A DNA stretch of 64,000 nucleotides, from assembly GCA_038227875.1 (NCBI GenBank), contig JBBRPR010000001.1:128001-192000 (forward strand), written 5' to 3'. The position numbers and the translations under genes were made by a program. Position 1 is the first letter of the stretch. The number at the start of each line of letters is the position of its first letter. The stretch comes from Planctomycetota bacterium. Its GTDB lineage: Bacteria; Planctomycetota; SZUA-567; H5-PLA8. This document shows, piece by piece, positions 3,712 through 52,146 of the stretch. The notes under the pieces are model-generated. The model was not told where the DNA came from and did no database searches. It worked only from the letters and a program-made list of their open reading frames with translations.

Positions 3712-5700
3712 TCAGTCGGCCTGCTCCAGCACAATGGCCTTCATCTTTGGCGCATCGCCGCATTTGATCGTGTAGTTGTCGTTGTCTTTTGCGGCGATGT
3801 GGACGTCCTGCTTGTCCTGGCCGGCTTCCTGCCACGTGTACGTCACTTTCACGGGGCGGAAGCCACCGTGGGGCTCCGTATAATCGGCATCGGCGCGCGC
3901 GGCGAAGATCACGCAGTTGCCTTTGGAATTGGCGTGAATGCGGACCTGCGCCTTGCGCGTGCCCGCAGGGATCTCGCTGAAGCTGATGAATTTTCCATTC
4001 TGGCGGTTCGGGCCCATCGCATGGTCGACGGTCTTGAAGGTCTTGCCGTCGTCGAACGAAACCTGGTACTCAAAGCCTTCGTTCTTGTCGCCCGCGCGGT
4101 AATTGCAGCCAAAGCGCAGGCGCACCAGATCGCCCGGCGTTTCCAGCGGCATGGTTAAATCCGCGTTCGCGCCCGCCGGGACCAGCGTCTTCCACTGCTT
4201 GAAGGTGTCGGGATTGAAGCCGGTCGTCGTGACGTGAAATTCTTCGAGTGACGGCTGGCCCTTGGCTTTGAATTCCGGATGCGTGGCCTGCACCGTCACC
4301 GTTCCTTCCTGCGGACCGGCGCTGAAGGTAATCGTGTTGTCGCCCTTGCCCAGCGCCGGAAGCGGTCGCTGGGAGTGCTGGATGTCGTGCGAAATTTTCA
4401 GCGCTTTCACCGCCGTGCCCGCGCCGTTGAGCGTGAACTTCAAGCGGTAGTCGTAGTGTCGATACACCAGCGCCTTCAGGTCGATGGTCTGCGGACCGGC
4501 AGCATTGACTTTCGAGACGTCCTTCCAGTCGGTCCCGTTGTTGTCTGAGAATGCGACGCTGACATCGCCCCCCGCTGCCAGCGCGGCGTCGACGACGAGC
4601 GTGCCGCTCAAGTACACGTAACTGCAGGGCATGCGCACGACGAACGATCCGGACGCCGCCCCGTCCTTGATCTGCACCGGCTTCTCTTTGTCGGCGCTGA
4701 AGGCGATATTTTCTGAACTGAACACAGCGTCCTTGAACGTCGCATCGGCCAGCGGCGGTTCGTAAACGAGCGTCCCGTTGCCGACGCGGCCGTTGCTCAA
4801 GTCGCCCATTTTTGGCGTGTAGTAAAGAACGCCTTTGCCGGTCTCCGCTTTGAGGAGTTCTGGGTTGCCGCCGGAGCCGTCCATGTTGACGTGCAGGCCC
4901 GTGTTGCTCCAGTTGCGCGTCAGCTTCTCGCCTTTGCGGAGCTGGATGTTGACGCGGTATCCGGCGGTGTAGGTGTCCTGGTATTCAAACGGCGTTTTGT
5001 TGGTGCCGTCGAAAATCAGCATCGCGGTGTACCAGCCAAAATAGTTGAACGGGAAGTTGCCGCGATCGTCGAGCATCGGTGACGTGCGCAGCAATTCCGG
5101 GCCGGACTTGATCCCGTTCTGCTCACGCATGAATTTCTGGATCTTCGGCACGTCGCCGATGTAGCCGGGATTTTTCTCGTACCAGGCTTTGACGTTGGCG
5201 ACGAGCTCCTCCACGCCCGCGATCTTGCCGTCAGGCTTGCGGAAATACGCGATCAGCGAGGGGTCGAGGAAGTGCCACGCGTCGTCGTAGCGGATTTCCG
5301 GCGCCTGGCCCCAGCGGTTGACGGTGAACGCGCGCGCCTCGAAATTCAGCGCCCGCGCCAGCGCCATCAGCGACGTGCAGCCCGTGCCGTAGCCGTAAAC
5401 ATTGAAAAGCTTGATCGGATCGGTGACCGTCGGCGACGTCAGGCCCGAGAATTCAATCGGCTCCGGTTCGAAATGCCGGAATTTCACCACCGTGTCGAAG
5501 ATCGCCAGCGCCTTCTGTTCGTTGGTCATGCCGTCTTTGATCTCGGACTTCTGCCACGCCTCGATGCTCGACACATCTTCAACCTTATCCGAGAGCACTT
5601 TGACGTTGCTGACGATCGCCGGCGCTTCGCCCGCTTTCAGCGCGCTGCCCATGGCAAGGGTGGCGACCATCAGGAAAACGGCGGTGAGACGCATATTCAT
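3712..5700 (-). CDS. Secreted transglutaminase-like protein, paralog of 34816-36786
   Basis: Signal peptide MNMRLTAVFL after GGAG; FNVYG and EIRYDDAWHFLD; end-to-end similarity to the second copy. Confidence 0.7.
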   Translation of the reverse strand: MNMRLTAVFLMVATLAMGSALKAGEAPAIVSNVKVLSDKVEDVSSIEAWQKSEIKDGMTNEQKALAIFDTVVKFRHFEPEPIEFSGLTSPTVTDPIKLFNVYGYGTGCTSLMALARALNFEARAFTVNRWGQAPEIRYDDAWHFLDPSLIAYFRKPDGKIAGVEELVANVKAWYEKNPGYIGDVPKIQKFMREQNGIKSGPELLRTSPMLDDRGNFPFNYFGWYTAMLIFDGTNKTPFEYQDTYTAGYRVNIQLRKGEKLTRNWSNTGLHVNMDGSGGNPELLKAETGKGVLYYTPKMGDLSNGRVGNGTLVYEPPLADATFKDAVFSSENIAFSADKEKPVQIKDGAASGSFVVRMPCSYVYLSGTLVVDAALAAGGDVSVAFSDNNGTDWKDVSKVNAAGPQTIDLKALVYRHYDYRLKFTLNGAGTAVKALKISHDIQHSQRPLPALGKGDNTITFSAGPQEGTVTVQATHPEFKAKGQPSLEEFHVTTTGFNPDTFKQWKTLVPAGANADLTMPLETPGDLVRLRFGCNYRAGDKNEGFEYQVSFDDGKTFKTVDHAMGPNRQNGKFISFSEIPAGTRKAQVRIHANSKGNCVIFAARADADYTEPHGGFRPVKVTYTWQEAGQDKQDVHIAAKDNDNYTIKCGDAPKMKAIVLEQAD

Positions 5701-5909
5701 CAGGGTTCTCCAAGACGTGTACACGTGTCCACGTACACCGTTCAGCGCGGAAAGTGGCGCGAATTTATGCGCTTCCCGGACCACAAACGGAATGGTCACC
5801 ACGACTTAAAATTCCCCATTGAAATAGTGCTTACAATTTGGAAAACCTGAAGGAGAATTAAGCGAAAAGGTCTGTATGGTATCGAAAGCTCTATAAGGGA
5901 GGCCGGTCT

Positions 5910-7034
5910 GTGCGCAGCATCGCGTTTATTCTCAGTATTACCGTGTCCGCGGCGTTTTGTGCGGACAGCCAGGTCGAAACCAAACATCCCGAAAATGTGC
6001 CGCCCCCTGTCGCTGTTGCACCCGATACCACCGCGACCGCTCCCGCCACCACTTCTGAAGCAGCCGCCGATCCCGATGCCTGCAATGAAGACTTTACCGG
6101 CCGCAACGTCACCGCCGAATTCCGCGACCGCTTCGCCCACATCGATAAATTCTGCACCGAAGACCGCAAGGAAGCGCTGAAGCCGTACAACGTGCTGATC
6201 GTTCACGGGCTGCTGGGCGAAGTCGGCCTGAAGTTCACGGGCTTTCTAAACGTCTTCAGCAAAGACCAGAATTGCATCGACTACTTCAAGGACCAGCGCA
6301 AGGCGGTGGAAGAGTTCGGCATCGAGCCGCAATTTCCCGGCTTCAAGTCGGCCTCCGTCGATCGCAGTGGTTCAAAGATTGTGAAGGCGATTCTGGAATC
6401 CGACAAGCCGGTCGTGATCATCTCGCATAGCAAGGGCGGCATCGATACGCTCGACGCGCTGATCAAGTTGCAGAAGAAAGGCCAATTAAGCAAAGTCGCC
6501 GGCTGGATTTCGATCCAAGGCTGTTTCTACGGTTCACCCGACGCCGACAAACTGGAGAACTCTAAAGTCCGCAAGCAGTTTGTCCACGTCGCGCTGAAAT
6601 GCCTGGGCGCAAATTGGGATTCGCTTCACGATCTGACCACGACCGCCGCCGAAACCTACCACGCGGACCACAAGGATGAGATCGCGACTGTGCTGCAGAC
6701 GGTGCCGACGCTCTGTTTCGCGAGCTGGTCGGAGAAGAAAAGCATCACCTTTAAGACCGACGGCCCCGTGCCGCTGCGCAGCGCCGTCCTGCCCAACACC
6801 GACTACATCGCCAAGTGCGGCGTCACCCACGAAATGACGGTGATCCGCTCGTCGGACAAATACGACCGCCAGACGTTCACCAAAGCGCTGCTGACGATGC
6901 TGGTCGACAAGCTCCCCAAGTCCGGAACCCCCGCCGCGCCGGAAACGCCCGTCACGCCGGCTCCCAAAGAAGGCGGCCAGGCGCAGGAAAGCGTGCCGGA
7001 GGCTGTCCCGGTTTCCGCGACTTTTGGTGACTGA
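5910..7034 (+). CDS. Secreted alpha/beta hydrolase (lipase/esterase-like)
   Basis: Signal peptide; LIVHGL oxyanion motif, SHSKGG nucleophile elbow, TDGPV Asp and VTH His candidates. Confidence 0.8.
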   Translation: MRSIAFILSITVSAAFCADSQVETKHPENVPPPVAVAPDTTATAPATTSEAAADPDACNEDFTGRNVTAEFRDRFAHIDKFCTEDRKEALKPYNVLIVHGLLGEVGLKFTGFLNVFSKDQNCIDYFKDQRKAVEEFGIEPQFPGFKSASVDRSGSKIVKAILESDKPVVIISHSKGGIDTLDALIKLQKKGQLSKVAGWISIQGCFYGSPDADKLENSKVRKQFVHVALKCLGANWDSLHDLTTTAAETYHADHKDEIATVLQTVPTLCFASWSEKKSITFKTDGPVPLRSAVLPNTDYIAKCGVTHEMTVIRSSDKYDRQTFTKALLTMLVDKLPKSGTPAAPETPVTPAPKEGGQAQESVPEAVPVSATFGD

Positions 7035-7036
7035 GG

Positions 7037-7084
7037 AATTTGATTTTGAATTGCTGCCCCAATTAGGAATTCAAAATTAAAATT
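7037..7084. terminator. AT-rich hairpin, possible terminator
   Basis: ATTTTGAATT...AATTCAAAAT inverted repeat directly after the hydrolase stop codon. Confidence 0.4.
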
Positions 7085-7194
7085 GATCGTGACGTACGCT
7101 AATTTGCCACATGCCGTTCCGAACGCCTCCGCTATAATTCCGATTCATCTTCTGAGCTTTGCTTCCGTGAGTGGGGAGAGTGGGGGGAATACGC

Positions 7195-8232
7195 ATGCCG
7201 TTTGATGTCGTGACATTTGGTGAGGCGATGATCCGCCTGGCTCCGCAGAACGATCTGCGGCTGGAACAGGCGCGCGGTTTGGAAGTGACCGTCGGCGGCG
7301 GCGAGTTGAACGTAGCCGTCGGCGTTTCGCGGTTGGGGTTCAAGTCGGCGTGGGTCAGCCGCGTGCCGTACAACGCGCTGGGCCGCATGGTCGTCGGCAA
7401 GGCGCGTGAACAAGGCGTCGACGCCACGCACTGCGGATTCGCCAAGGAAGGACGTTGCGGAATTTATTTTCTCGAACAGGGCGCCAGTCCGCGTGCGGCC
7501 GCTGTGCTTTACGACCGCGCCGACAGTTCGATCAGCAAAATCAAACCGGGTGAAGTGGACTGGAGTGCGGCGCTGGACGGTGCGAAGTACTTCCACGTTT
7601 CCGGTATCACCCCCGCACTTTCGGCCAGCGCCGCCGAGACCACTCACGAAGCGCTGACGGCCGCAAAATCCGCCGGCTGCCTGGTCAGCTACGATCTGAA
7701 CTACCGCTCGAAACTCTGGACGCCCGCCGAAGCGCGCGCCTGCCAGGAACCGCTGATGGAGTACGTCGACCTGCTGATCACGACCGAGGAAGACACGCGC
7801 GTCGTCTTCGGCATCGAAGCGCCGAAAGGCAGTGACGAGAATTTCGAGAAAGTCGATGCGGCCGGTTACCGTAGCGTCGCGGAGCAGTTGGCGGAGAAGT
7901 TCGGCTTCAAAGGCGTGGCGATCACGCTGCGGCAGAACAAGTCGGTCTGGTTCAATGATTGGTGGGGCCTATATTACGACGCAGAAGGTAAGAAGTTTTT
8001 CGAGTCGCCGAAGTACAACGTCGAAATCGTCGACCGTGTCGGAGCTGGCGACAGCTTCGCGGCGGGACTGATTTCAGCGCTGCTGATCAAGCCCGACGAT
8101 TACGATCACGCCATCCGCTTCGCCGTCGCGACCAGCGCGCTGAAACATTCGATACCCGGCGACTTCGCGATCATCACGCGCGCGGAAGTCGAGACGTTGA
8201 TGAAGGGCGGCGGGTTGCGCATCTCGCGCTAA
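7195..8232 (+). CDS. kdgK: 2-dehydro-3-deoxygluconokinase-like PfkB sugar kinase
   Basis: VVTFGEAMIRL, GGGELNVA, FHVSGITPAL, YDLNYRSKLW, VDRVGAGDSF, LKHSIPGD. Confidence 0.85.
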   Translation: MPFDVVTFGEAMIRLAPQNDLRLEQARGLEVTVGGGELNVAVGVSRLGFKSAWVSRVPYNALGRMVVGKAREQGVDATHCGFAKEGRCGIYFLEQGASPRAAAVLYDRADSSISKIKPGEVDWSAALDGAKYFHVSGITPALSASAAETTHEALTAAKSAGCLVSYDLNYRSKLWTPAEARACQEPLMEYVDLLITTEEDTRVVFGIEAPKGSDENFEKVDAAGYRSVAEQLAEKFGFKGVAITLRQNKSVWFNDWWGLYYDAEGKKFFESPKYNVEIVDRVGAGDSFAAGLISALLIKPDDYDHAIRFAVATSALKHSIPGDFAIITRAEVETLMKGGGLRISR

Positions 8233-8239
8233 CGTGATA

Positions 8240-8276
8240 GGTCAATTTGACCCTCGGGTAAATTTACCCGAGGGTC
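8240..8276. repeat. Two chained palindromes, the second a perfect 28-mer
   Basis: GGTCAA-T-TTGACC (8240-8252) overlaps GACCCTCGGGTAAA|TTTACCCGAGGGTC (8249-8276). Confidence 0.9.
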
Positions 8277-8279
8277 CGT

Positions 8280-8398
8280 TTTGTAGTCCGGGCGTCTCGC
8301 CCGATCGGTGACGGACGGACGATTCTTGCAAGAGCCGTGACGTCGGTTTCGCAGCGCGCAATTTTCAAGAGGACCGGGCGGGACGCCCGGACTACGAA
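8280..8398. repeat. Inverted pair of GTAG-type REP sequences (REPIN-like)
   Basis: GTAGTCCGGGCGTCTCGCCCG at 8283 and the inverted copy GACCGGGCGGGACGCCCGGACTACGAA at 8372-8398. Confidence 0.8.
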
Positions 8399-8402
8399 CC
8401 GC

Positions 8403-9248
8403 ATGGAAGACAAGGAAGCGCAGGCCGAAGAGCTCGTCCGGCAGGGCATTGAGTACCAGGAGCGCCAGAGCTTCAAAGAAGCGCTGTGGAGTTTCTCGCG
8501 CGCGCTGGAAGTGATGCCGGGCTTTCCGCTGGCCTTGTTGCGGCGCGGACATCTGTTGCTTACCGCCGGCAAGACGACGGATGCGATCCACGATTTCACC
8601 GCCGCCATCGACCGCGATCCGACGGACGAACGCGGGTATTCGTACCGCGGGTTGGCGTTTCAGCGCGCCGGCGACGATGAGAACGCCGTCGCCGATTTTA
8701 CATCCGCGATCAGCCTGAAGCCCGACGCCGTGACCTACCAGTGCCGGGGCTGGAGTCTCTCGCGATTGGCGCAGCACACCAAGGCGATGGCCGACATGCA
8801 GGCGGCGATCGTCTTAAAGCCGGAGAACGTCCAGTTCTACCTCGACCGCGCCGCCGTCGCCGACGCTGCCGGCGAAAGCGAAGAAGCGATCGCCGACCTC
8901 ACGCACGCCGTGGAGATGGAACCGGAGAACATCAAGGCGTTGGAAGCGCGCGGCCTGCTTTACATGGAAGGCGCGAATTTCAACATGGCCGAGCGCGACT
9001 TCACCAAGATCACCGAACTGAATGCCAAGTACGCCGATGCCTACTACCTGCGCGGCGAAAACTTTTTCAAGCAGACGATGTACGACGACGCCGAGACCGA
9101 TTTCACGCTTGCGATCTCGCTCAAGCCCGACTTCCGCTACTTCTACGAAGCCCGCGCCCGCGCCTACGATCAGCTCCAGCAACCGCAACTCGCCGCCGCC
9201 GACCGCGCCCGCGCCGAGAAACTCCCGCACCCCGTGAACCTGGCGTAA
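8403..9248 (+). CDS. Tetratricopeptide repeat protein
   Basis: Repeated 34-aa units (RG...AIxDFTxAIxLxP). Confidence 0.9.
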   Translation: MEDKEAQAEELVRQGIEYQERQSFKEALWSFSRALEVMPGFPLALLRRGHLLLTAGKTTDAIHDFTAAIDRDPTDERGYSYRGLAFQRAGDDENAVADFTSAISLKPDAVTYQCRGWSLSRLAQHTKAMADMQAAIVLKPENVQFYLDRAAVADAAGESEEAIADLTHAVEMEPENIKALEARGLLYMEGANFNMAERDFTKITELNAKYADAYYLRGENFFKQTMYDDAETDFTLAISLKPDFRYFYEARARAYDQLQQPQLAAADRARAEKLPHPVNLA

Positions 9249-9258
9249 CGAAGATGGA

Positions 9259-9359
9259 GTGCTTAGGGACAGCTGTCCCTAAGCACCTTGTCACAAAGTT
9301 GCAACAGGGTGTTTGCTTTTGAACATCGGATAAATTTATGCCGACGTATCCGAATCCGT
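9259..9359. repeat. Chain of about five palindromes starting with a perfect 28-mer
   Basis: GTGCTTAGGGACAG|CTGTCCCTAAGCAC, then imperfect CACCTTGTCACAAAGTTGCAACAGGGTG, TGTT..AACA, TCGG-ATAAATTTAT-gCCGA and ACGTATCCGAATCCGT. Confidence 0.85.
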
Positions 9360-9402
9360 AAGCCGCTCTTTGCGACTTCGCGGCTTTGAGTGAGATAAAA
9401 AA

Positions 9403-11388
9403 CTATTCCCCCGCCGCAACCGCTCCCGCCGGGAACGTCCAGTTCTTCGCGTATTTCGGATCGCGTGCGACGCCGTTCATTGGCGCGGCGAGCATCGCTT
9501 CCTTCTTCTCGAAGAGCGGGCTCTTCTCGCAGGCGTCGCAGATGAAACACGGCGTCTCGTTGTTCGGGTCGGTGTCGGTGCAGGTCAACGTCACGCGGCC
9601 CTGCTCGGCGCGCTTGAGCTCCCGCTTCAAAAACGCTTCGCTGACGGTGTCGTTGACGATCACCCACGGCAGAATTTCGTTCAAGCCGCGCTCGCGCAGC
9701 CCGAACCAGTCGGCGTCCATCTTGTAATGTTCGAACGCCGCCATCCACACGTCCAGCTTCAGATGTTCATCCCACGCGTCGAAGCGCGCGCCGTTGTGCC
9801 AGGCGTGTTCGATGATCTTGCCGATGCGCCGGTCGCCTCGGGAGAGGATGCCTTCGAGGTAGCTCGTCTCCGGATCGTGAACTTTTACTTTCACCGTTTT
9901 CACGTGCGAACTGTCGCGAATCACGTTCTGGCGGCGCTTCCATTCGTCGCGCGAGAGCATCGGCGCCCACTGAAACGGTGTGCCGCACTTCGGTACGAAA
10001 CTCGAAACACTGGCCGAAACTTTCGCGGAACGTTTGCCGAGCTTCGTGCGCTCCATGGCGATCGTGTCCGACAAGCGGCCGATGGCCTTCAGGTCCTCGT
10101 CGGTTTCGCCGGGCAGGCCGAGCATGAAGTAGAGTTTCACGTGATCGTAGCCGGCCTTGAACGCTTCACGGCAACCGGCGATCAGGTGGTCGTCGCGGAC
10201 GGGCTTGTTGATGATGTTGCGCAGCCGTTCGCTCGCGGCTTCCGGCGCGATGGTCAGACCGCCCTTGCGCACGCGGCTCATTTCCTTGGGCAGCGTGGCA
10301 AGCACGGTGCCGATGCGCAGGCTCGGCAGCGAGACGCCGACGCCGCGGTCCTCGAAATAATCGTTCAATTGCCGCGCGAGATCCGTGATGCCGAAGTAGT
10401 CGCTCGACGACAGCGAAAGCAGCCCGATTTCGTCGTAGCCGGTCTCTTCGAATCCGGCCTTGGCCAGTTCCATGACCGTTTCCGGCGAGCGCTGGCGCTG
10501 CGTGCGCGTGATCATCCCGGCCTGACAGAACCGGCAGCCGTTGACGCAGCCGCGCATGATCTCGATGGCGAAGCGCTCGTGGACGCTCTGCACCCACGGC
10601 ACGATCTGTTTGGTCGGAAACGGCGCCTTGTCGAAGTCGACGACGGTGCGGCGCTTCACTGGAAATGGCAACCGATTCTTGAGCGGGATGACGTCGGCGA
10701 TAGTGTTGTCCGGAAAATATTCGAAGCGATAGAAGCGCGGCACGTAGACGCCGGGAACTTCGCGCGTGAGGCGCAGCAGTAGCGCGTCGCGGTCCAGGCC
10801 CAGCGCTTTGAGTTCGCCGATCTTGTTCGAGACGTCGATGGCGAGTTCCTCGCCCTCGCCGATGCAGAACGCGTCGATGTAATCGGCGATCGGTTCCGGC
10901 GCAAAAGCGGTGTGCCCGCCCATGATCACGATCGGGTGTTTCATCGTCCTCTCTTCGGCTTTCAGCGGAATGCCGGCGAGATCGAGCATGGTCAGAATGT
11001 TGGTGAAGCCGCCTTCGTACGCGACGGAGAGCGCCAGCACGTCGAACTCGCTGATCGGCGTAAACGTTTCGAGCGAATAGAGCGGCACGCGCTGCTGGCG
11101 CATGCGCTGTTCCATGTCCGGCCACGGCGTGAAGACGCGCTCGCAGACGGTGTCCTCGCGCAGGTTCCAGCAGTGGTAGAGCACTTTCAGACCGAGCGAG
11201 GACATGCCCATTGCGTAGGTGTCGGGCATGCCGAGCGCGACTTTGATTTTCACCGAGGCGTGATCTTTGACGACCTGGTTGAGCTCCCCGCCGGTGTACT
11301 GAGCCGGCGTGTCCACGTGCGGCAGAATTTCCGCCTCGACCAGGCGCCGCAACGCACTGCCGCGCAAAGTGATGGGTGTAAAAGGCAT
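9403..11388 (-). CDS. B12-binding-domain radical SAM protein, TIGR03960-like
   Basis: PAQYTGGELN, PDTYAMGMS, ERVFTPWPD, EIMRGCVNGCRFCQAG (CxxxCxxC), TIAPEAASERLR, GARFDAW. Confidence 0.9.
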   Translation of the reverse strand: MPFTPITLRGSALRRLVEAEILPHVDTPAQYTGGELNQVVKDHASVKIKVALGMPDTYAMGMSSLGLKVLYHCWNLREDTVCERVFTPWPDMEQRMRQQRVPLYSLETFTPISEFDVLALSVAYEGGFTNILTMLDLAGIPLKAEERTMKHPIVIMGGHTAFAPEPIADYIDAFCIGEGEELAIDVSNKIGELKALGLDRDALLLRLTREVPGVYVPRFYRFEYFPDNTIADVIPLKNRLPFPVKRRTVVDFDKAPFPTKQIVPWVQSVHERFAIEIMRGCVNGCRFCQAGMITRTQRQRSPETVMELAKAGFEETGYDEIGLLSLSSSDYFGITDLARQLNDYFEDRGVGVSLPSLRIGTVLATLPKEMSRVRKGGLTIAPEAASERLRNIINKPVRDDHLIAGCREAFKAGYDHVKLYFMLGLPGETDEDLKAIGRLSDTIAMERTKLGKRSAKVSASVSSFVPKCGTPFQWAPMLSRDEWKRRQNVIRDSSHVKTVKVKVHDPETSYLEGILSRGDRRIGKIIEHAWHNGARFDAWDEHLKLDVWMAAFEHYKMDADWFGLRERGLNEILPWVIVNDTVSEAFLKRELKRAEQGRVTLTCTDTDPNNETPCFICDACEKSPLFEKKEAMLAAPMNGVARDPKYAKNWTFPAGAVAAGE

Positions 11389-11473
11389 GGCATGACCTCG
11401 CTTCAAATTAGGACAAAACTGCTGCGGAGTGTTATACGGGAAGGAGGGGCAATTGACGACGGAGAATTGGAGG

Positions 11474-11824
11474 CTACCGGCCCTCCATTTTCTGCGTGAT
11501 GCGGATCGCCATTTCGGATCCAAATAGCGCCACGTGTGGCGTACAGAACAAGACGGCAGGCGATTCGGTCCTCGTCATATATACAATCAATCCCAATTCC
11601 AAGCTTGCGACCAGGAACAGGGCGAAGAGAAGTAACAATGAGATATGACGCCCGCGTCGCAACGAGTTGCCAGCGATGATACTCAAGTTCAAACCGGCCG
11701 TCATAATTGTAAACGAAACGAACGCGGCCATTCCAAGTGCATAGCCAGCCAGGCCGATCAGTACAGATCCGGCAACCCCGAGCAGAAAGACATTTAGCGC
11801 CAAATCTGCCTGCTGAGTTCGCAT
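11474..11824 (-). CDS. Small membrane protein
   Basis: 116 aa with 3-4 hydrophobic segments; GGAG upstream; lower GC than neighbours. Confidence 0.6.
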   Translation of the reverse strand: MRTQQADLALNVFLLGVAGSVLIGLAGYALGMAAFVSFTIMTAGLNLSIIAGNSLRRGRHISLLLLFALFLVASLELGLIVYMTRTESPAVLFCTPHVALFGSEMAIRITQKMEGR

Positions 11825-11889
11825 AGCCGCTCCAGACTGTTATAGTGCGCGAATGTCCAACGCCAGGCAACAGGTTTCATTTACGATTG

Positions 11890-12984
11890 ATGGACAACCT
11901 CACCCACACCTTCATCGGCTGGACCCTCGCCCGCGCTGGCTTTGACCGTTTTGGCCCGTGGGCCACGCCGGTGCTGCTGGTCGCGGCGAATCTTCCCGAC
12001 GCGGAAGTTCCACTGCTCTTCGGCGACAAGGCAATGTACCTCGCGTACCACCGCGGAGTGAGCCACAGTTTTCTCGGCTTCGTGCTCGAGGCACTCGTTG
12101 TGAGCCTCGTCGTCTGCGGGATCGCGTGGGTGCGGCGGAAACGAGAGCCGGAATCGCCGCCGCCGAAATTTCTCGCGGTGATGTTCGTGGCGCTGGTCGG
12201 GCTGCTCTCACATCTGCTGCTCGATTTTCTGAACACGTACGGCGTGCGCCCACTGTTGCCATTCGATGGGCGCTGGTTCTACGGCGACATGCTCTTCATC
12301 GCCGATCCGTGGTCGTGGCTGATTCTCGGTGCAGGATTGTTGATTGGAACGCGCGCCGGCGGAGTCGTGCTGAAGATTATTGGCACGATTCTGGTCCTCG
12401 GGGCCTTCAGCGTGATGGCCTACGGCTTTCGCAACGACGTTGTCTCGCAGCACGTCTTCTTTGCCTGGATCGGACTTGCCGTGCTGGCGTTGGTGGTGAA
12501 TTTCTGGCCGCCGCGCGGCATCACACCCTCTCGCGCCGCGTGGAGCGGTCTCAGCGCGTGGACGCTTTATCTGCTCATGGCGTTCTTCGCCAGCCGCACG
12601 GCGACGGCGCGTGCGATGGAAGTTTACTTACTCAACGCGGCTCCACCGCAACCGATCATCACCAGCAGCGCCAGTTCCGCCCCGGCCGCGCCATGGCGGC
12701 ACACGGTCGTGCTGCAGACGGAGAACGAACTCTTCGTCTACGCCGTCGACGAAATCTCCGGCACCGTGGAATACAAAACCCATCTGCGGCGCAACCTCGA
12801 TTGCGCCGCCAGTCCCGCGCTCCAAAACACACGCGAATACAAAGCCTGGCAATCCTTCGCGCGACATCCCTGTTGCGAATGCAGCGACGGCATTATCACG
12901 CTCTTCGACGGCCGGTATCGTGGGTTCGGCGGCGCCGACTGGACCGCATTTCATCTACCCCAGCCAGGCGAGCGGCCGAACTAA
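11890..12984 (+). CDS. Membrane-bound metal-dependent hydrolase (YdjM/DUF457)
   Basis: MDNLTH, ANLPD, HRGVSHS, SHLLLDFLNTYG. Confidence 0.9.
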   Translation: MDNLTHTFIGWTLARAGFDRFGPWATPVLLVAANLPDAEVPLLFGDKAMYLAYHRGVSHSFLGFVLEALVVSLVVCGIAWVRRKREPESPPPKFLAVMFVALVGLLSHLLLDFLNTYGVRPLLPFDGRWFYGDMLFIADPWSWLILGAGLLIGTRAGGVVLKIIGTILVLGAFSVMAYGFRNDVVSQHVFFAWIGLAVLALVVNFWPPRGITPSRAAWSGLSAWTLYLLMAFFASRTATARAMEVYLLNAAPPQPIITSSASSAPAAPWRHTVVLQTENELFVYAVDEISGTVEYKTHLRRNLDCAASPALQNTREYKAWQSFARHPCCECSDGIITLFDGRYRGFGGADWTAFHLPQPGERPN

Positions 12985-12987
12985 GGG

Positions 12988-17857
<4,870 letters not shown>

Positions 17858-17858
17858 T

Positions 17859-18028
17859 TTCTAGTCTCACGCAAAGCCGCTAAGTCGCAAACGGCTTGCT
17901 GATTTGTATGTAAAAACGTCGGCGTGGCCCTCCGGAAATCTGCTGGAGGGTCAGAGCAATGCCTCTTCTCGTAGAACAAATTCCGTTTGCCTTTCTTTGC
18001 GTCTTTGCGGCTTTGCGTGAGATTAGAA
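17859..18028. mobile_element. MITE-like element with ~33-bp imperfect terminal inverted repeats (CGCAAAG family)
   Basis: TTCTAGTCTCACGCAAAGCCGCTAAGTCGCAAA ... TTTGCGTCTTTGCGGCTTTGCGTGAGATTAGAA; single arms at ~9367-9395 and ~44558-44586. Confidence 0.65.
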
Positions 18029-18353: not shown

Positions 18354-18390
18354 GCGCACTTTCCATCTGGCGCAAAGTCGAAAACGACGT

Positions 18391-18467
18391 CGGGATTCGG
18401 GATTCGGGGATTCGGGATTCGCCGAAAGCGGACGCGCAGCGAATCTCGATTCCCGAATCCCTATCCC
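18391..18467. repeat. Inverted heptamer (GGGATTC) repeat hairpin
   Basis: About four GGGATTC units, then inverted GAATCYC-like units, between convergent ORFs. Confidence 0.75.
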
Positions 18468-18472
18468 GCCGT

Positions 18473-20095: not shown

Positions 20096-20424
20096 GGAAA
20101 TGAAACCTCCCTTATACTCTTTGCCTACACGCGTCTAGATGTACGAAGAAAGCGGCATGATACACCCGATTTGGAGCGTCACAAGAGTGAAGGTTCCACA
20201 AAAAACACCCGTGCAGACGGTTGTGCACAATGATGGAATCGAAGAGCAATGTGTGGGTTCACCTGCATTAGTCGCGCAGGCCCGGTAGAAGATTACAAAG
20301 AAAGTGGTCAATCATTTCAAGCCTGATCGTCAACCCTCCCTTCGTGACTCCGGTTACGAAGGGAGAATCCAACCCACGGCCGCTGGCGATCCGTGCAGTT
20401 GCAAGGGTTACCCGAGGTGATCCA

Positions 20425-32483: not shown

Positions 32484-32647
32484 TCGTGCGTCCTTGAAGG
32501 TGTCGTGTCCGGAATTGTCACAGGAACTCTGCTGATTCTCCCTTAGTGACAGGTATCCCTAAGGGAAAAGTTGAATTTACCGACCGGCCAGGCGAAACGA
32601 AAGGCGGATTGTCTGTGGCTCAGGTTTCAGATATACGAAGTAGCAGC

Positions 32648-33856
32648 ATGAATGGAAACAGTATCCGCTGGATCGCGATTGCCTTTGCGCTGGGTCTGTG
32701 CGCAGCCTACGCCCTATGGGGCAACAATTCCGGCACGCCGGTACCGCAGCCAGGGGTCGTGAATTCCGGCGTCGCGATCAACACCGGCGCGAACACCACT
32801 GCTACAACCGCTACGAACACCCCCCTGAACGGCAAACCGCCGCCCCTGCTTCCCTCGGTGAATCCCGCCGATGACCCGAGCATGGCCAGCGTCGGTTCGC
32901 GCTACATTAGATTTGAACCCGACTCGCTCGACTTCGGCGACGTCCGCGTCGGCGAAAAGAAAGAACTGACGGTCAACATCGTCAATATCTCCAACAAGAC
33001 CGTGCATCTGATCTACGCACGCGGGTCCTGCACCTGCATGAAGCCGGAACTTCCCGTGCAGGACCTGGCGCCCGGCAAAAGCACTCCGTTTAAAGTGTCG
33101 TTCAGCGGCCTTCCCGGCAAGCGCCCGGAGTCTTACCATATCGAAGTTGGACTCTCGGAAGCCGACATGCCGGCGTTCGTTGACGTGAAGGGCAAGGTGG
33201 TCCAACTCTTCTCGGTCGATCCCGAAAAGCTCGTCTTCGGCAGAATGAAGAAAGGTTCCACCAAGTCGATCGTCGCCACGATCAAAAAGCTGGACGGCCA
33301 GCCCTTCACGATCTTGAACGCCGTCGCGACGCAAAAGGACATCGACCTGACCATGCCCGTCGAAGTTCCGGGCAGCAACAAAAGCGCCTACCAACTCACG
33401 GTGTCGATCAAGGCCTTCCGCGCCACGCGCTTGTTCGAGCAGCTTTCAGTACTGACCGATGCGATGTCCGATAAAATGGCCGCGACCGTTCCCCTGCTGG
33501 TCTATGCCGAAATCGATGGCGACGCTGTCTGTCTCGACGAAAATCTGACCACGACTTTCGACAACAAGGGCAACCTGCAGCCCTTCCAGACCACGATCAA
33601 GCGCCTCACGCCGGGCCCCTTGATCATCGAGTCCGTCGCCGACAGCGAGGGCGGCGCCATGACGTTTACCACCGAAACGGTCGACGCCTCTTCGGTCAAA
33701 GTCAGCTTGACGATGAACACCGAACTGCGCCACAAGAAACCCTTCGGCGAACTGCGCATCAAGACCAACGTCGAAACCGAACCCATCCACGTCCCCTACT
33801 CGCTGCCCCGCAAACCGAGCGTGGGGCCGGGCACCACGGGACTCGGGGGCCAGTGA
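32648..33856 (+). CDS. Membrane-anchored DUF1573 / Ig-like repeat protein
   Basis: N-terminal TM; LDFGDV, GSCTC, LAPGKS; further Ig-like repeats. Confidence 0.8.
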   Translation: MNGNSIRWIAIAFALGLCAAYALWGNNSGTPVPQPGVVNSGVAINTGANTTATTATNTPLNGKPPPLLPSVNPADDPSMASVGSRYIRFEPDSLDFGDVRVGEKKELTVNIVNISNKTVHLIYARGSCTCMKPELPVQDLAPGKSTPFKVSFSGLPGKRPESYHIEVGLSEADMPAFVDVKGKVVQLFSVDPEKLVFGRMKKGSTKSIVATIKKLDGQPFTILNAVATQKDIDLTMPVEVPGSNKSAYQLTVSIKAFRATRLFEQLSVLTDAMSDKMAATVPLLVYAEIDGDAVCLDENLTTTFDNKGNLQPFQTTIKRLTPGPLIIESVADSEGGAMTFTTETVDASSVKVSLTMNTELRHKKPFGELRIKTNVETEPIHVPYSLPRKPSVGPGTTGLGGQ

Positions 33857-34356: not shown

Positions 34357-34793
34357 GCACCATTCCCGCCCCGGCTCCATCCGGTGAACGCGACTGGCCT
34401 GCGCTGATCGCGCGCTTTCTGGCCGGAGCGATGCTCTTCTACGCCGGCTTCATGAAGCTCAACACGTCCGCCGAATTCGCCGCGACGATCGCCAACTTCC
34501 GCATGCTTCCCGCCGTCGCGAACCAACTGTTGGCCGTGGTGCTGCCGTGGTGTGAAGTCGCGACAGGATTACTGTTGATCGCCGGAGTCTGGCCGCGCGC
34601 CGCGGGCCTCGTCGCCACGCTGCTTTTTCTGGCCTTCGGCATCGCCGCCAGCGCTGCTGTGATCCGCGGCCTGGACATCCAATGCGGCTGCTTCGGCACC
34701 GCCTCCGCCCGCCGCGTCGGCGTGCTGACGCTCGGCGTCGATCTGGCCGGATTGATCTCGGCGGCGCTGGTCGTCTTTCAGCGGGAGCCGTGA
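34353..34793 (+). CDS. MauE/DoxX family membrane protein
   Basis: AGFMKL, LPWCE, RGLDIQCGCFG; four TMs. Confidence 0.9.
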   Translation: MSTIPAPAPSGERDWPALIARFLAGAMLFYAGFMKLNTSAEFAATIANFRMLPAVANQLLAVVLPWCEVATGLLLIAGVWPRAAGLVATLLFLAFGIAASAAVIRGLDIQCGCFGTASARRVGVLTLGVDLAGLISAALVVFQREP

Positions 34794-34815
34794 CGGGCAT
34801 GAACGTTCGTGGCCG

Positions 34816-36786
34816 TCATTCGCCTAATTCGAGCGTGATCGACTTCATCACCGGCTTCGCGCCACAGGAGATCGTGTAGTTATCGCTGGCGGATTTGGCG
34901 ATGTGAACGTCCTGCTTCGCGACGCCGTTCTCGTCCCACGCATACGTGATCTTCACGGGCCGGAAGCCGCCGTGCGGTTCTTTGTAGTCGGCGTTGATGC
35001 TGAAGCGCATCACGCAAGTAGTGTTGCGTTGTGTTCCAGACCAGCGCACGAAAGCCTCTTTCGTTCCCGGCGGAATCTCCGCATACGTCAGGTAGAGGTC
35101 CGTGCTCGGCGTCGGCCCGCCCGCGTGTACAACGGTCTTGAACGTCTTGCCGCCATCGAACGAGAGCTGATAGTCCCAGCCGTCCTTGGCGTCGCGCGCG
35201 CGGTAGTCGCTGCCGAAGCGCAGTCGCGTCATCTCGCCGGGCGTGGTGACCTTGAAGGTGATGTCGCCGCTCCCGCCAGTCAACATCCACGACTTGGGCG
35301 AAACGCCATTCATGACGGGATGAAAATCATCCGCGCGTAGTTGCTGCTTGACGTCCGGATCGGGCGCAGCGGAAATCGTCACTGTGCCTTCCGAGGGTTC
35401 GGCGTTGAAGCGGATTGAATTCTCGCCAGCACCCAGCGCCGGCAAGGGTCGCTGCGAATGAAGAATGTCGTTGGCGACAGTCAGGCTGTCCAATCCTGTC
35501 CCGGCGCCCTTCAGTGTGAACTTCAATTGGTAATCATAGCGCTGAGTGACAAACGGCTTCAGGTCCAGAGTCCGCTCGCCCGTCGCGCTGATTTTCGCCA
35601 CGTCCGCCCAGTCCAGACCATTGTTCATCGAAATCGCGGCGGTGATCTCTCCGCCCTCGCCGACGACGGCTTTCAGCGTCGCCGCGCCGGTCAGGAAGAG
35701 GTAACCACTACTCATCCGGAATATCAACGTGCCCGGTTTCGCCGCGTCCTGGAGATGCAGCGCCGGCGTCGCCTTGTCGTCGGCGGTGCTGGCCAGATTT
35801 TCTGCCAGCAGCGCTCCACCTCGGAACGAACCGTCGGCGAGCGGCACGTTGTATTCGTGCCGGCCATGCCCGATGCGTCCGTTGCCCAGATCGCCGAGCG
35901 TCGCTGAATACGCCAGCACGCCTTCGCCGACTTTCAGCTTGAGAAAATCCGGGGGCATACCTTCTGGCAACGGCAAGGCCGTGCCCTGGTTGGACCAGTT
36001 GCGAACGATTCGTTCACCCTTGCGCAGTTGAATATTGATGGCGTGGCCTTGGAAATAGCCGTGGTCGTACTGATTGGGCGTGCCATGCGTGCCGTCGTAA
36101 TTGACCATCGACGTCTGCCAGCCGCCACACAGCGCGCAGGGCGACGAGCCGTTGGGAAAAAATGTCGGACAGGCAGCGAATAGCGGCGGGCCATTCTTCC
36201 AACCGGCTTTCATGAACTGGTTGAGCTTACCGCCGTCGCCGAGGTAACCCGGGTTCTTGTCGTACCATTCTTTCGCTGCCGCCTTGATTTCTTCGACTCC
36301 CGCGATCGAACCGTCTGGTTTGGGGAAATAATTGACGTACGCCGCATCGAGCAGATGCCAGGCGTTGTCGTATTTGATCTCCGAAACGCAGTGCCCATTT
36401 AGATTCCAGCCCCGCACCTCCATGTTCAAATACCGGCCGAGCGACTCGGCCATCGCGCCGGAGCAGCAACAGAAATTGCAGCCGTAAACATTGAACGTCT
36501 TGATGGCATCGTGAACGCAGGGTTCGGTTGCGCCAAGGTGCTCGGCAATGGGAGCGCCTTCAAGTCCGAACATGACGATCGTTTTCCAGATCGCCATCGC
36601 CTTGTCCGCGTCGCTCATGCCGTCTTTGATGTACGACTTCTTCCACGCCTCCAGGCTTGAAACATCTGGCACCTTGTCCGAGACCACCGAGATGTGACTG
36701 ACGACCCCCGGCACAGCGTCGTCGGTCGCATAAAGAAATCCCGATACAAATAGACCTGCCAAAATGACCCAGCATAGTTTGCGCAT
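34816..36786 (-). CDS. Secreted transglutaminase-like protein
   Basis: Signal peptide after GGAGG; FNVYGCNFCCC, GHCVSE, WHLLD (candidate Cys-His-Asp triad). Confidence 0.75.
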   Translation of the reverse strand: MRKLCWVILAGLFVSGFLYATDDAVPGVVSHISVVSDKVPDVSSLEAWKKSYIKDGMSDADKAMAIWKTIVMFGLEGAPIAEHLGATEPCVHDAIKTFNVYGCNFCCCSGAMAESLGRYLNMEVRGWNLNGHCVSEIKYDNAWHLLDAAYVNYFPKPDGSIAGVEEIKAAAKEWYDKNPGYLGDGGKLNQFMKAGWKNGPPLFAACPTFFPNGSSPCALCGGWQTSMVNYDGTHGTPNQYDHGYFQGHAINIQLRKGERIVRNWSNQGTALPLPEGMPPDFLKLKVGEGVLAYSATLGDLGNGRIGHGRHEYNVPLADGSFRGGALLAENLASTADDKATPALHLQDAAKPGTLIFRMSSGYLFLTGAATLKAVVGEGGEITAAISMNNGLDWADVAKISATGERTLDLKPFVTQRYDYQLKFTLKGAGTGLDSLTVANDILHSQRPLPALGAGENSIRFNAEPSEGTVTISAAPDPDVKQQLRADDFHPVMNGVSPKSWMLTGGSGDITFKVTTPGEMTRLRFGSDYRARDAKDGWDYQLSFDGGKTFKTVVHAGGPTPSTDLYLTYAEIPPGTKEAFVRWSGTQRNTTCVMRFSINADYKEPHGGFRPVKITYAWDENGVAKQDVHIAKSASDNYTISCGAKPVMKSITLELGE

Positions 36787-37593: not shown

Positions 37594-37668
37594 TGCAGGC
37601 GGGACGCCTGCTCCACAAAAAATTACGCGCGCGGACCCGAGAATTGTGGGGCGGGCGTCCCGCCTGCA
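37594..37668. repeat. Inverted pair of GTGG-type REP sequences
   Basis: TGCAGGCGGGACGCCTGCTCCACAA and TTGTGGGGCGGGCGTCCCGCCTGCA; same GGCGTCCCGCC core as the 8372 and 46270 copies. Confidence 0.8.
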
Positions 37669-37814
37669 CAAAACGCAATTTCGCGCAGCGAAGAGCCGTG
37701 AGCTGATATTCGCGCTCGCGAAAATCGCGCGGAACTGGACATCGCCTATCCGTGGGGTAAATTTATCTGCTTCGAATCTGTGCAAGTCGCAGGTGCTCGC
37801 GGCGGGAGGCTTTC

Positions 37815-43980: not shown

Positions 43981-44445
43981 TCATACGGAGACAAAGATCT
44001 CTTCGAACTCAACGCCCAGTCCTTCAAATTCGTGTTCAAAGCGGATCGGGCGGGCTTCGATGCCGATGCCTTCGTAGTCGCCGCCTTTCATCACGATCTC
44101 CAGCTTGAAGGCGCGGACGGGATAGCTGTCCTTGGGCAGTTTGACGTCGCCCAGCATCGCCCCCGACGGAGAGACGTTCAGCACCGTGGCGCTGCCGCAG
44201 TCGTAGACGGAGCCATCCATGAGGAGCACCTTGATATTCGCGTCGATCTTCACCGGCGCGCGGCGGGCTTTGCGGTAATGGGCGCGCAAATGGTCGAAGA
44301 AATCCGCGGAGCGTTCCGCGGCATGGAAGACATCATCATCGGGCACGGGGATCGCTTTCAGCTTGAGGCCGGTGTCGGCAATCGGTTTTCCGGTTCGCGC
44401 GGAAATGCGGCCGAGTCGTTTGGAAATACGTTTCGATTCAGACAT
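43981..44445 (-). CDS. PilZ-domain protein
   Basis: RKARR (RxxxR) and NVSPSG (D/NxSxxG), GLGVEF; ATG after AAGGA. Confidence 0.75.
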   Translation of the reverse strand: MSESKRISKRLGRISARTGKPIADTGLKLKAIPVPDDDVFHAAERSADFFDHLRAHYRKARRAPVKIDANIKVLLMDGSVYDCGSATVLNVSPSGAMLGDVKLPKDSYPVRAFKLEIVMKGGDYEGIGIEARPIRFEHEFEGLGVEFEEIFVSV

Positions 44446-44650
44446 GGAGTTCCTTCCGCAGGTGACGCCGGGGTTGAGGATACGGACGTGCGGCGGGAAT
44501 TCAAGAGTGTGCGGCGGTTTCCTCGTTTTAAATCTCACGCCCGGACGCCGCTCATGATCTCGCGCAAAGACGCAAAGACGCAAAGAACAGAAATTGTTCT
44601 TTTACAATCGCGTTACCGACCGGCAGGCCGCGCCATTGTATGTTATCAGT

Positions 44651-46183: not shown

Positions 46184-46269
46184 TGGCGCGAAGCCTCCCT
46201 TTTATAGAGTGAAGTCGAACCAACTTAACGATGCACCTCGAAAGAGGCAAGAGGCGAACGGCCTGCAGT

Positions 46270-46296
46270 TTCGTAGTCCGGGCGTCCCGCCCGGTC
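46270..46296 (+). repeat. GTAG-type REP, single copy
   Basis: TTCGTAGTCCGGGCGTCCCGCCCGGTC, identical over 27 bp to the reverse complement of 8372-8398. Confidence 0.85.
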
Positions 46297-46314
46297 TAAC
46301 CTCGGCACTCACCT

Positions 46315-46505
46315 GCCAATTGGCCATGCGGTTAAAACCCAACATGGGGACTGTAGTCCCTATCCACCTTTTAAATGGATGCTGAAGGTCAGCATCTGCA
46401 AATTTGCCAGAACCACTACTAATGGTAGTGTTGTACCCGTGGTACACCTTGTTGCAAATTTGCAACAAGGTCATTTTGACCTCCGGGCCACGTGGCCCGG
46501 AGGTC
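46315..46505. repeat. Array of about 11 different end-overlapping palindromes
   Basis: Read directly from the sequence; includes perfect 26-bp ACCTTGTTGCAAA|TTTGCAACAAGGT and 28-bp GACCTCCGGGCCAC|GTGGCCCGGAGGTC. Confidence 0.9.
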
Positions 46506-46635
46506 TCCTCCTCAATCGTTCGTTTAATGAATGGAACGCGCGAATTTCCGTGACTTTCGCGGTAGCCGGGTAGTCTTAGAAGTACTATTCCTTGTAACAG
46601 TTCCCACCGTGCGGGATCAGTAGTCACGAACGGGG

Positions 46636-50514: not shown

Positions 50515-52146
50515 ATGGGCATGCGCGAGGCGACGCGGAAGGAACGGGTGGTGCAGGGGCTGCTGGCGCTGCTCTGCCTGGCTCCGCTACTTTGCGCGTT
50601 TTTCTTGAATGGTGGGCTCTCGTCGACTGAAACTGCTCCGACGGCAGAACAGATTGCATCGCATCGCTACGAATTGCTGGCGGCCGGGGCGCGCAGCTTG
50701 CTCGTTGCGCTCTCGGCAACGGCGGTCGCGGCGGGCGTGGGGATTCCGGCGGCGTGGGCGTTGGCGCAGCGGCGGCGGCCGCTGTTGATGCTGGTGCTCT
50801 GCGCGCTGCCGCTGGCGTTGCCGGCCTCGGTGGCGGTGAGCGGGTGGGTGCGGATGTTTGCGCCGGGAGCGGCGTCGAGTTTCGCGCCGCCGGCGATCAC
50901 GGCAGGCCAAGTGCCGCGCGGGTTGCTCTTCAGCTCGTTCGGCGCGGCGTTGATTCAAGGTTTCAGCCTCTGGCCGCTGATCGCGTTTGAACTCTGGCCG
51001 GCCTTCCGGCGTGCGCGGAGCGAATCGTACGACGCGGCGGTGTTGAGCGGTTCGCGGCTGCGCGCGTTTTTGCGCGTCGTACTTCCGCAGTGCAAGGGCG
51101 AACTGGCGGCCGGCGCATTGCTGGCGTTTCTGCTGGCGATCAGCGATTTCAGTGTCTGCTCGCTGTTGCTGATTCGCACGCTGCCAGTGGAAATCCACGA
51201 CGCTCTGATGTTGGGAAAGACCACCAGCGCGGCGTGGTCGGCGGCGCCGCTGCTGCTGCTGGTCGCGATCGCGGCGCTCTCGTTTTCGCGTCTGTCCAGA
51301 AGCCATTACAACTCCGGCACGCCGGTGCAACTGCCTGCGGGAGCGCCGCACAGTTGGGCGGCGTCGGTGCTCTTAATCGGCGGCGTGCTCGCCGGCTTCG
51401 CGGCGCCAATGGTCGGTTGCGCGGCGGGCATTCCCGCGACGGAAAAATCGATCTCGCTGGCACTGCGCGTCGGCGTCGATTCGCTGGCGCTCTCGGTGCG
51501 ATTGGCGGCGGCCGTGGCGTTGCTCTCCGGCTTGCTGGCGATCGCCCGCGTGCTCGCCTGGCCCGATACCCGGACGCGCGCGCTGAACGCGGCGGGATTG
51601 TTTCTGCTCGCGATTCCCGGCTCGTTTCTGGCGACGGCGGTTTTCGCGATTCAACTGAACGCGTCATCGACGTTGGAAGGCGCGCAGTTGGAGCGCCTCG
51701 CGGCGCTGATTCCAGCGGCGAGCCTGGGGCTGGCGCTGCTGGTCCGCTTTCTGTATGTGCCACTTCGATTGGTGGAAGAAGGGCTCGCGTCCGTCGATCA
51801 TGAAGTGCTGGACTCCGCGGCGCTGGCGGGGCATGGGCGGCTTTCGGTGGCGATTTCCGTCGCGCTACCGCTGCTCCTTCCGCACATCGCGGCGGCGACG
51901 GCGCTGGTGTTTATCCTGGCACTGGGCGAAATTCCGCTCGCCGACCGGCTCTCGCCACCGGGCGCAATTACGGCCATGGTCTGGCTTTTTCAGCAGCAGC
52001 ACATGGGCTACGACGCGGGCGTGTTTGGGCTGAGCTTCTTGATGGGCGCAGTTTGCGCCGGAGTCCTTTTTGCCACTGGCGCGGCGGCGGCGTTGGCGCG
52101 AAAATTGTTCCATCTGACGAGAAGCAGCGGTAGTTTTGAGTTTTGA
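50515..52146 (+). CDS. ABC transporter permease, FbpB/ThiP-type (two fused halves)
   Basis: About 12 TMs; two EAA-like loops (YDAAVLSG, LDSAALAG); TLPVEI. Confidence 0.85.
   Translation: MGMREATRKERVVQGLLALLCLAPLLCAFFLNGGLSSTETAPTAEQIASHRYELLAAGARSLLVALSATAVAAGVGIPAAWALAQRRRPLLMLVLCALPLALPASVAVSGWVRMFAPGAASSFAPPAITAGQVPRGLLFSSFGAALIQGFSLWPLIAFELWPAFRRARSESYDAAVLSGSRLRAFLRVVLPQCKGELAAGALLAFLLAISDFSVCSLLLIRTLPVEIHDALMLGKTTSAAWSAAPLLLLVAIAALSFSRLSRSHYNSGTPVQLPAGAPHSWAASVLLIGGVLAGFAAPMVGCAAGIPATEKSISLALRVGVDSLALSVRLAAAVALLSGLLAIARVLAWPDTRTRALNAAGLFLLAIPGSFLATAVFAIQLNASSTLEGAQLERLAALIPAASLGLALLVRFLYVPLRLVEEGLASVDHEVLDSAALAGHGRLSVAISVALPLLLPHIAAATALVFILALGEIPLADRLSPPGAITAMVWLFQQQHMGYDAGVFGLSFLMGAVCAGVLFATGAAAALARKLFHLTRSSGSFEF

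Follow-up and report, generated by a model that had tools for sequence, protein, structure and literature searches.

Genes and repeats around the palindrome chains

The window, i.e., the whole 64,000-nt stretch of Planctomycetota DNA analysed here, contains at 9259-9359 an array of palindromes between two convergent genes, a TPR-repeat gene on the plus strand (8403-9248, with its TAA at 9246-9248) and a radical-SAM gene on the minus strand (9403-11523), which leave a gap of 154 nt. The array, chain B (9259-9348), opens 10 nt past the TAA with unit B1 (9259-9286), a perfect 28-bp palindrome with 14/14 pairs (arms GTGCTTAGGGACAG and CTGTCCCTAAGCAC). Unit B2 (9284-9311) overlaps B1 by three bases, CAC, and is a decayed CACCTT unit with 10/14 pairs, whose four mismatched pairs are all uncompensated. 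The spacer TTTGA and unit B3 (together 9318-9348, B3 itself 9321-9348) complete the chain; B3 is a decayed unit of the third type and holds ATAAATTTAT.

Chain A (46340-46505) is composed of unit A1, an extra segment of 74 nt, and the units A2 and A3. Unit A1 (46340-46367) is the decayed counterpart of B1; it has 8/14 pairs, folds into an 8-bp stem and holds GGGAC-tgta-GTCCC, and its end ...CCCTATCCAC runs on into CACCTT. The extra segment (46371-46444), present in chain A only, is bordered by CACCTT direct repeats (46365-46370 and 46445-46450) and forms four short hairpins (46378-46396, 46397-46413, 46414-46430 and 46434-46444), with a second TGCAAATTTGC core at 46397-46407. Unit A2 (46445-46472) is a near-perfect CACCTT unit with 13/14 pairs, and the spacer ATTTT separates it from A3 (46478-46505), a perfect 28-bp palindrome (arms GACCTCCGGGCCAC and GTGGCCCGGAGGTC).

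A third locus, copy C (8239-8276), has the unit-2 tail AGGTC, followed by AATTT as the spacer and by C3 (8249-8276), a perfect unit that starts 16 nt past the stop codon (8230-8232) of a pfkB-family kinase gene. Two further units are solitary, each 28 bp long with 11/14 pairs. The first (20337-20364) is found between divergent genes, and a secreted protein probably starts about 60 nt downstream of it; the second (32539-32566) precedes the ATG (32649) of a DUF1573 protein by 83 nt. Both are alike at 21/28 positions and have a GAGAATC flank in common, and their homology is limited to the unit and about 7 flanking bases. Within the chains, the centre-to-centre spacing of the units is irregular (25, 37 and 33 nt), and their orientation is undefined, the units being palindromic.

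The last 12 bases of 9259-9359 fall outside the palindrome family. They belong to a distinct repeat (9348-9412, minus strand) formed by a CGCAAAG-type octamer element and an AAGCCGC...GCGGCTT hairpin, which follows the radical-SAM gene's stop codon and also overlaps it. In blastn comparisons this repeat matches 17848-17909 (78% over 65 nt, E 7e-10) and 17982-18028 (81% over 47 nt). Elements of CGCAAAG-like octamers with a hairpin are located at 9348-9412, 17848-17909, 17982-18028 and 44550-44587; they stand directly after two stop codons, and the homology takes in some 10 nt of either coding end (GGGGGWRTAG). The stretch 17859-18028, made up of two copies of the octamer repeat in inverted orientation, forms a 170-nt hairpin after a beta-galactosidase-like gene. 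Other repeats of the window are inverted pairs of short tandem heptamers (GGACTGA, GGGATTC, AATGACC, TTTGAGT), which form long hairpins at gene ends (40509-40533/41509-41533; 18387-18472; 43780-43840/43914-43974; 52135-52164/58923-58952); one of these pairs brackets an entire AraC-family gene, with 975 nt between its arms. A 97-nt tRNA-Arg(tcg) called by ARAGORN at 51731-51827 lies inside a permease-like gene (50515-52146) and is probably false.

Homology and unit order of the chains

The sequences quoted in the original prediction for this stretch are all present where it had placed them. It regarded B2 as a decayed relative of A2 (46445-46472), and this relationship holds, as 23/28 bases are identical, a value reached in 0/200 shuffles (100 Markov shuffles of the window give a mean of 18.0 and a best of 21). 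The likeness that it saw between GGGAC-agct-GTCCC and GGGAC-tgta-GTCCC is at chance level when these motifs are taken alone (13/17, with a shuffle mean of 12.3 and a maximum of 14) and stands marginally with context, i.e., when the GGGAC unit is compared together with the right-hand ...CCCTA..CACCTT junction (9266-9289 vs 46347-46370: 19/24, in 0/200 shuffles, maximum 18); we regard this value as marginal, given that 18/24 is attained at 44119, an unrelated coding site. Likewise, the cores ATAAATTTAT and GTAAATTTAC, which it had paired, resemble each other weakly at the quoted length, and the extended comparison of B3 with C3 (9318-9338 vs 8246-8266) yields 18/21 identical bases (0/200 shuffles, maximum 17).

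Homology extends over whole chains. The local alignment of chains A and B scores 50.6, compared to 25.5 +/- 4.3 (maximum 41.6) in 300 dinucleotide shuffles. Copy C matches 46468-46505, i.e., A3 with its upstream AGGTCAWTTT, at 27/38 positions (0/200 shuffles); the non-redundant part of this match, the context and one arm, amounts to 18/24, which 4/200 shuffles reach.

Collinearity was tested by all-against-all blastn of 35 intergenic segments (6,548 nt), by MAFFT and by local alignment. Chains A and B have a common order, in which a GGGAC unit is followed by a CACCTT unit and then by a TTTGA spacer with a CGG..AAATTT-type unit. The junction between the first and the second unit is conserved (...CCCTAnnCAC/CTT), and the junction between the second and the third, AGGTCAWTTTGACC, is retained in A and C, while its TTTGA spacer is found in B. 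B1 has two possible partners in chain A, 46340-46367 and 46374-46396, and the order holds with either. The 74 nt at 46371-46444 have no counterpart in chain B and are seen as an alignment gap. A rearranged unit order was not found in any of the three chain loci of the 64-kb window, contrary to the original prediction, in which the order differed between loci.

We interpret the same order and the same junctions in three loci as an indication that the chains are diverged and truncated copies of one composite element. Judged from the alignments, chain B is a copy of chain A that keeps its order but is shortened and has partly decayed. The original prediction had named such descent by copying from one MITE as evidence against its own reading, and diverged copies are what we observe, save for the MITE label, for which neither terminal inverted repeats nor a target-site duplication can be demonstrated. 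It was right that the units near 9.3 and 46.4 kb, which lie 37 kb apart, are related and did not arise by local duplication. Its proposal that they draw on a limited shared vocabulary is retained in part: the unit family is limited, with nine units at five loci in the 64-kb window, but recombined orders are lacking. It is decidedly unlikely that independent palindromic units were inserted or assembled singly, so that the chains would be different orderings of a small set. The existence of solitary units (20337 and 32539), with homology that ends some 7 bases beyond the unit, would suit such an assembly, as would the extra hairpins of chain A that are absent from chain B and the relationship of the unit types in register. 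The order and the junctions of the shared units, however, are identical in A, B and C.

The 28-bp unit family and its symmetry

The ungapped alignment of the nine units from five loci yields the consensus nACCTTnGGGnCAnnTnnCCCnAAGGTC, and all of them fit a single dyad-symmetric archetype (nACCTTnGGGnCAn followed by its mirror). Across unit types, the similarity averages 12.1/28 (n=26 pairs), with individual pairs ranging from 8 to 17. The similarity of the family to eight other strong dyads of the window is 7.4/28 (n=72 pairs; Mann-Whitney p 4e-10), and random perfect palindromes made from intergenic 14-mers reach 7.0 +/- 1.9 of 28 (n=2,000). Random AAATTT-centred palindromes reach 8.8 +/- 1.7 of 28, with a 99th percentile of 13.1 (n=2,000); the units are thus more alike than random AT-centred palindromes on average, which the original prediction had required, although single pairs vary (8-17). 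Four members (A1, B3, 20337 and 32539) entered the family because they resemble another member. This does not apply to the four perfect units, whose between-type similarity is 11-17. Both solitary units are similar to B1. The closest relatives of B1 are the solitary unit at 32539-32566 (19/28), to which its inner part is identical at 19/22 positions in blastn (32542-32563), and then A1 (18/28).

Five units carry a fixed frame, CCYT-N16-ARGG, whose five matches in the window are all family units (1.77 are expected, and 3/100 shuffles reach 5). In the window, strong palindromes of this length are confined to intergenic DNA: 28-nt windows with at least 12/14 self-complementary pairs number six, all within 5,228 intergenic bases, while 100 shuffles have 0.59 on average and at most 3, and 9/9 units are intergenic by their centres. 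One further 28-bp palindrome (34791-34818, 12/14 pairs), in which the outer triplets are the stop codons of convergent genes (TGA...TCA), is unlike the family (3-9 of 28).

The covariance model R1, built from the nine units, retrieved no new member, as the best non-training match in the window (16.6 bits) stays below the best match of the control background (18.7 bits in 78.5 kb of control loci). B1, itself in the training set, scores 31.9 bits with R1, and B3 scores 17.8 bits, i.e., at background level. The 158 kb of control loci from other genomes contain no perfect spacer-less palindrome with arms of at least 13. A blastn search of a plasmid collection with 46260-46520 gave no match, and a literature text search with the unit and REP sequence strings gave no relevant one. 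Resemblance to CIRCE, parS and dif sites was considered and dropped on inspection of the sequences.

With arms of 7 or more and loops of at most 8, a scan detected 51 perfect hairpins in the window, and the four longest of them (8249-8276, 9259-9286, 46446-46471 and 46478-46505; arms 13-14) are all spacer-less; the best scores in ten Markov shuffles are 9-12, compared to 13-14 observed. The central four bases of the four best units (AATT, AGCT, AATT and ACGT) are self-complementary, and the solitary units at 20337 and 32539 are not self-complementary through the centre. A hairpin in RNA or single-stranded DNA needs no self-complementary centre, and a 4-nt loop would have one by chance in 1/16 of cases each.

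The dyad symmetry persists between diverged copies. A3 and C3, which are homologous by context, differ at 5/14 arm positions, and 5/5 of these differences are mirrored. In the nine-unit alignment both sides change in 13/14 pairs, a count that is partly circular as the members were chosen as palindromes. From the mismatches, 6 of them G.T and 4 A.C, no RNA-level selection is apparent for either strand. From the mirrored differences between A3 and C3 and the uncompensated mismatches of B2 it follows that some copies are maintained or young, while others are decaying.

Template switching could plausibly maintain the perfect symmetry. It is described as preferentially perfecting inverted repeats in PMC5941160 and PMC8794818, and the enrichment of perfect inverted repeats here and the mirrored multi-base differences between A3 and C3 would fit such a correction of imperfect repeats; that literature concerns a mutational process, however, whereas we deal with a repeat family. 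Template switching during replication would copy one arm onto the other, and the symmetry would be kept or restored including the centre. Copies without such upkeep (B2, B3 and A1) would decay.

Alternatively, the units could be sites for a dimeric protein (nucleoid-associated, recombinase-like or a regulator) that reads the outer CCYT/ARGG arms at a fixed distance, in which case their likeness would come from recognition and not from descent. We consider this rather unlikely, although several observations agree with it: the four best units are perfect dyads, centre included, beyond the need of a hairpin loop, the CCYT-N16-ARGG frame is found solely in family units, the length is fixed at 28 bp, and 5/9 units are promoter-side. 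Recognition would not require the conservation of non-palindromic junctions and spacers across loci. Moreover, the inner arm sequences vary widely among unit types, A3 and B1 are perfect palindromes that lack the frame, and no candidate protein is adjacent.

REP neighbours, possible mobility and possible roles

Two of the three chains (A and C) lie beside genuine GTAG REPs. A REPIN-like doublet (8277-8401) directly abuts C3; its REPs (8283-8304 on the plus and 8374-8395 on the minus strand) are inverted, with a 65-nt spacer and tags that face outward, and it fits the BIME pattern of alternating REPs. A single GTAG REP (46270-46296, plus strand) is located 43 nt upstream of A1 and is complementary to 8372-8398 at 27/27 positions. 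The sequence GTAGTCCGGGCGTC(C/T)CGCCCG at 8283 (plus), 8374 (minus) and 46273 (plus) has a stem of 7 bp and a loop of 3 nt, and its GTAG tag is unpaired. A second REPIN-like doublet (37594-37668) has inward-facing GTGG tags and a 25-nt spacer. At about 37754-37764, 85 nt downstream of this doublet, GGGTAAATTTA is identical to the core of C3, and this site may be a decayed unit.

Single and dimeric GTAG REPs, including GTGG variants, are reported from Planctomycetes and Verrucomicrobia in PMC3733652, and the GTAG/GTGG elements of the window match the description given there. The supplements of the same paper do not contain the adjacent REP core. The GTAG REP type occurs six times (with at most 4 mismatches) in a 15-kb contig of an Armatimonadia MAG (5140-15274; stems GCGGGCG/CGCCCGC), an Akkermansia MAG carries it as an inverted pair (10001-10055), and a Sumerlaeota MAG (9995-10021) has 27 identical bases in common with the REP, including the CGTTTT lead-in. 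Three haloarchaeal and other single REP matches look like chance in GC-rich DNA. The palindrome units are absent from nine single-REP-match loci of unrelated genomes, where blastn found REP matches only.

The 28-bp units have the size and location of REPs, which are palindromic stem-loops of 20-40 bp in extragenic DNA. As far as the descriptions in PMC3733652 and PMC2817692 go, REPs, REPINs and BIMEs are likewise short (20-40 bp) extragenic palindromes with complementary stem changes, and they occur single, paired or clustered with other motifs, mostly after genes. The parts of PMC3733652 on sub-families state that these differ by alternative complementary stem residues, and that REPs cluster with other repeats, at times inside target palindromes. 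The units differ from REPs as follows: an unpaired GTAG or CGTC tag is lacking, with none in the flanks of 9/9 units; their stems measure 12-14 bp, compared to the usual 6-9 bp of REPs; and the best units are perfect through the centre, while REP loops have 2-3 nt and are asymmetric.

Distinct short repeats packed into intergenic regions are also known from the mosaic arrays of Neisseria, where CGTC REPs are interleaved with other families, as related in PMC3733652. Here, by contrast, the units are variants of one 28-bp palindrome and their order is conserved. With MITEs the chains have in common that they are small, non-coding and dispersed, with truncated or decayed copies and strong secondary structure. 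Unlike MITEs, they lack terminal inverted repeats, as neither chain has one end that is an inverted copy of the other (46340/46505 and 9259/9348). Nor is a target-site duplication demonstrable at the chains in the window. The 6-bp CACCTT direct repeat of chain A brackets an internal segment whose own ends are not inverted.

In the best reading, the units and the GTAG REPs or REPINs that lie in common intergenic regions would form a BIME-like mosaic. The units themselves may be a dispersed, REP/BIME-like palindrome family without tags, in which the chain was copied as a block, each copy then decaying on its own, and in which some sites provide a hairpin at transcript ends; we give this explanation about an even chance. 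Units are observed alone (20337, 32539), within a truncated copy (C) and joined into chains (A, B). The composite would have spread as a block by some copy mechanism, and the mobility of the units can be imagined by analogy with REPs, which are moved by RAYT enzymes, a hairpin-recognising transposase acting in trans being the candidate mover. RAYTs are typically single-copy, and 64 kb are too short to exclude one. Among the 52 window proteins scanned with Pfam no transposase domain was reported, and no RAYT gene was found in the window; the proteins encoded include DUF1573, MoxR/DUF58/BatA and long ECF sigma factors.

As to function, a transcribed unit would fold into a 12-bp stem with a 4-nt loop, and a unit located just past a stop codon (B1, C3) might act as a terminator or as a hairpin that protects the 3' end. 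Hairpins of -22 kcal/mol or stronger occur downstream of 7/52 genes, compared to 1/52 upstream and 1/52 mid-gene; the median hairpin energy downstream of genes (-14.5) is close to that inside genes (-14.9; p 0.59). C3 is predicted to be terminator-like. The T-run that follows it is part of the adjacent REP consensus CGTTTTGTAG, which also occurs in the Sumerlaeota MAG locus (L005, 9995-10021). B1 has no T-run. A terminator role misfits five of the nine units (A1-A3, 20337 and 32539), because these lie in divergent, promoter-side regions and none of them is downstream of a gene. A hairpin of this kind probably functions at the 3' end of transcripts at some of the sites.

The same evidence bears on the suggestion that the units are ordinary, unrelated transcription terminators which are alike by chance and composition. 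The positions of B1 and C3 (10 and 16 nt past stop codons), the terminator-like call for C3 and the excess of strong hairpins downstream of genes (7/52 vs 1/52) are in its favour. This reading is already disfavoured and very unlikely to be correct, as the similarities go beyond all shuffles and include non-stem context, the unit types resemble one another more than they do other strong hairpins of the window, and five units are downstream of no gene.

It is very unlikely that the chains represent a gene family for a multi-hairpin small RNA. Chain A does fold as a run of local hairpins far above shuffles on both strands (z -8.2 on the plus and -6.6 on the minus strand), but copies B and C are truncated and decayed instead of conserved. 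No part of the window matches an Rfam family at gathering thresholds; when E values up to 1 are allowed, mir-8186 alone is matched (19.9 bits vs a gathering threshold of 80), at chance level and to one palindrome. Near chain A no promoter-like site was found, and none of the ten small ORFs of at least 20 aa in 46184-46635 is convincing.

The units have consequences for annotation. Situated at gene ends and in 5' regions, they could pass for operators or terminators, and they make open reading frames look longer than they are: for two secreted proteins, the longest ORF begins at a GTG within a unit (20344 and 32546), while signal-peptide-like sequences suggest that the true starts are near 20425 (TTG) and at 32649 (ATG).

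A more far-reaching, rather unlikely possibility is that the units represent a previously undescribed class of tag-less 28-bp palindromes, whose arms evolve in concert and whose perfect centre is kept despite drift, either by arm-to-arm template switching or by a symmetric protein that reads CCYT-N16-ARGG, and which seed growing chains beside REPs. Should the family prove abundant genome-wide, it would constitute a REP-like class without the GTAG/CGTC tags by which such elements are recognised, and it would likewise offer a natural case for how perfect dyad symmetry persists as sequence diverges.
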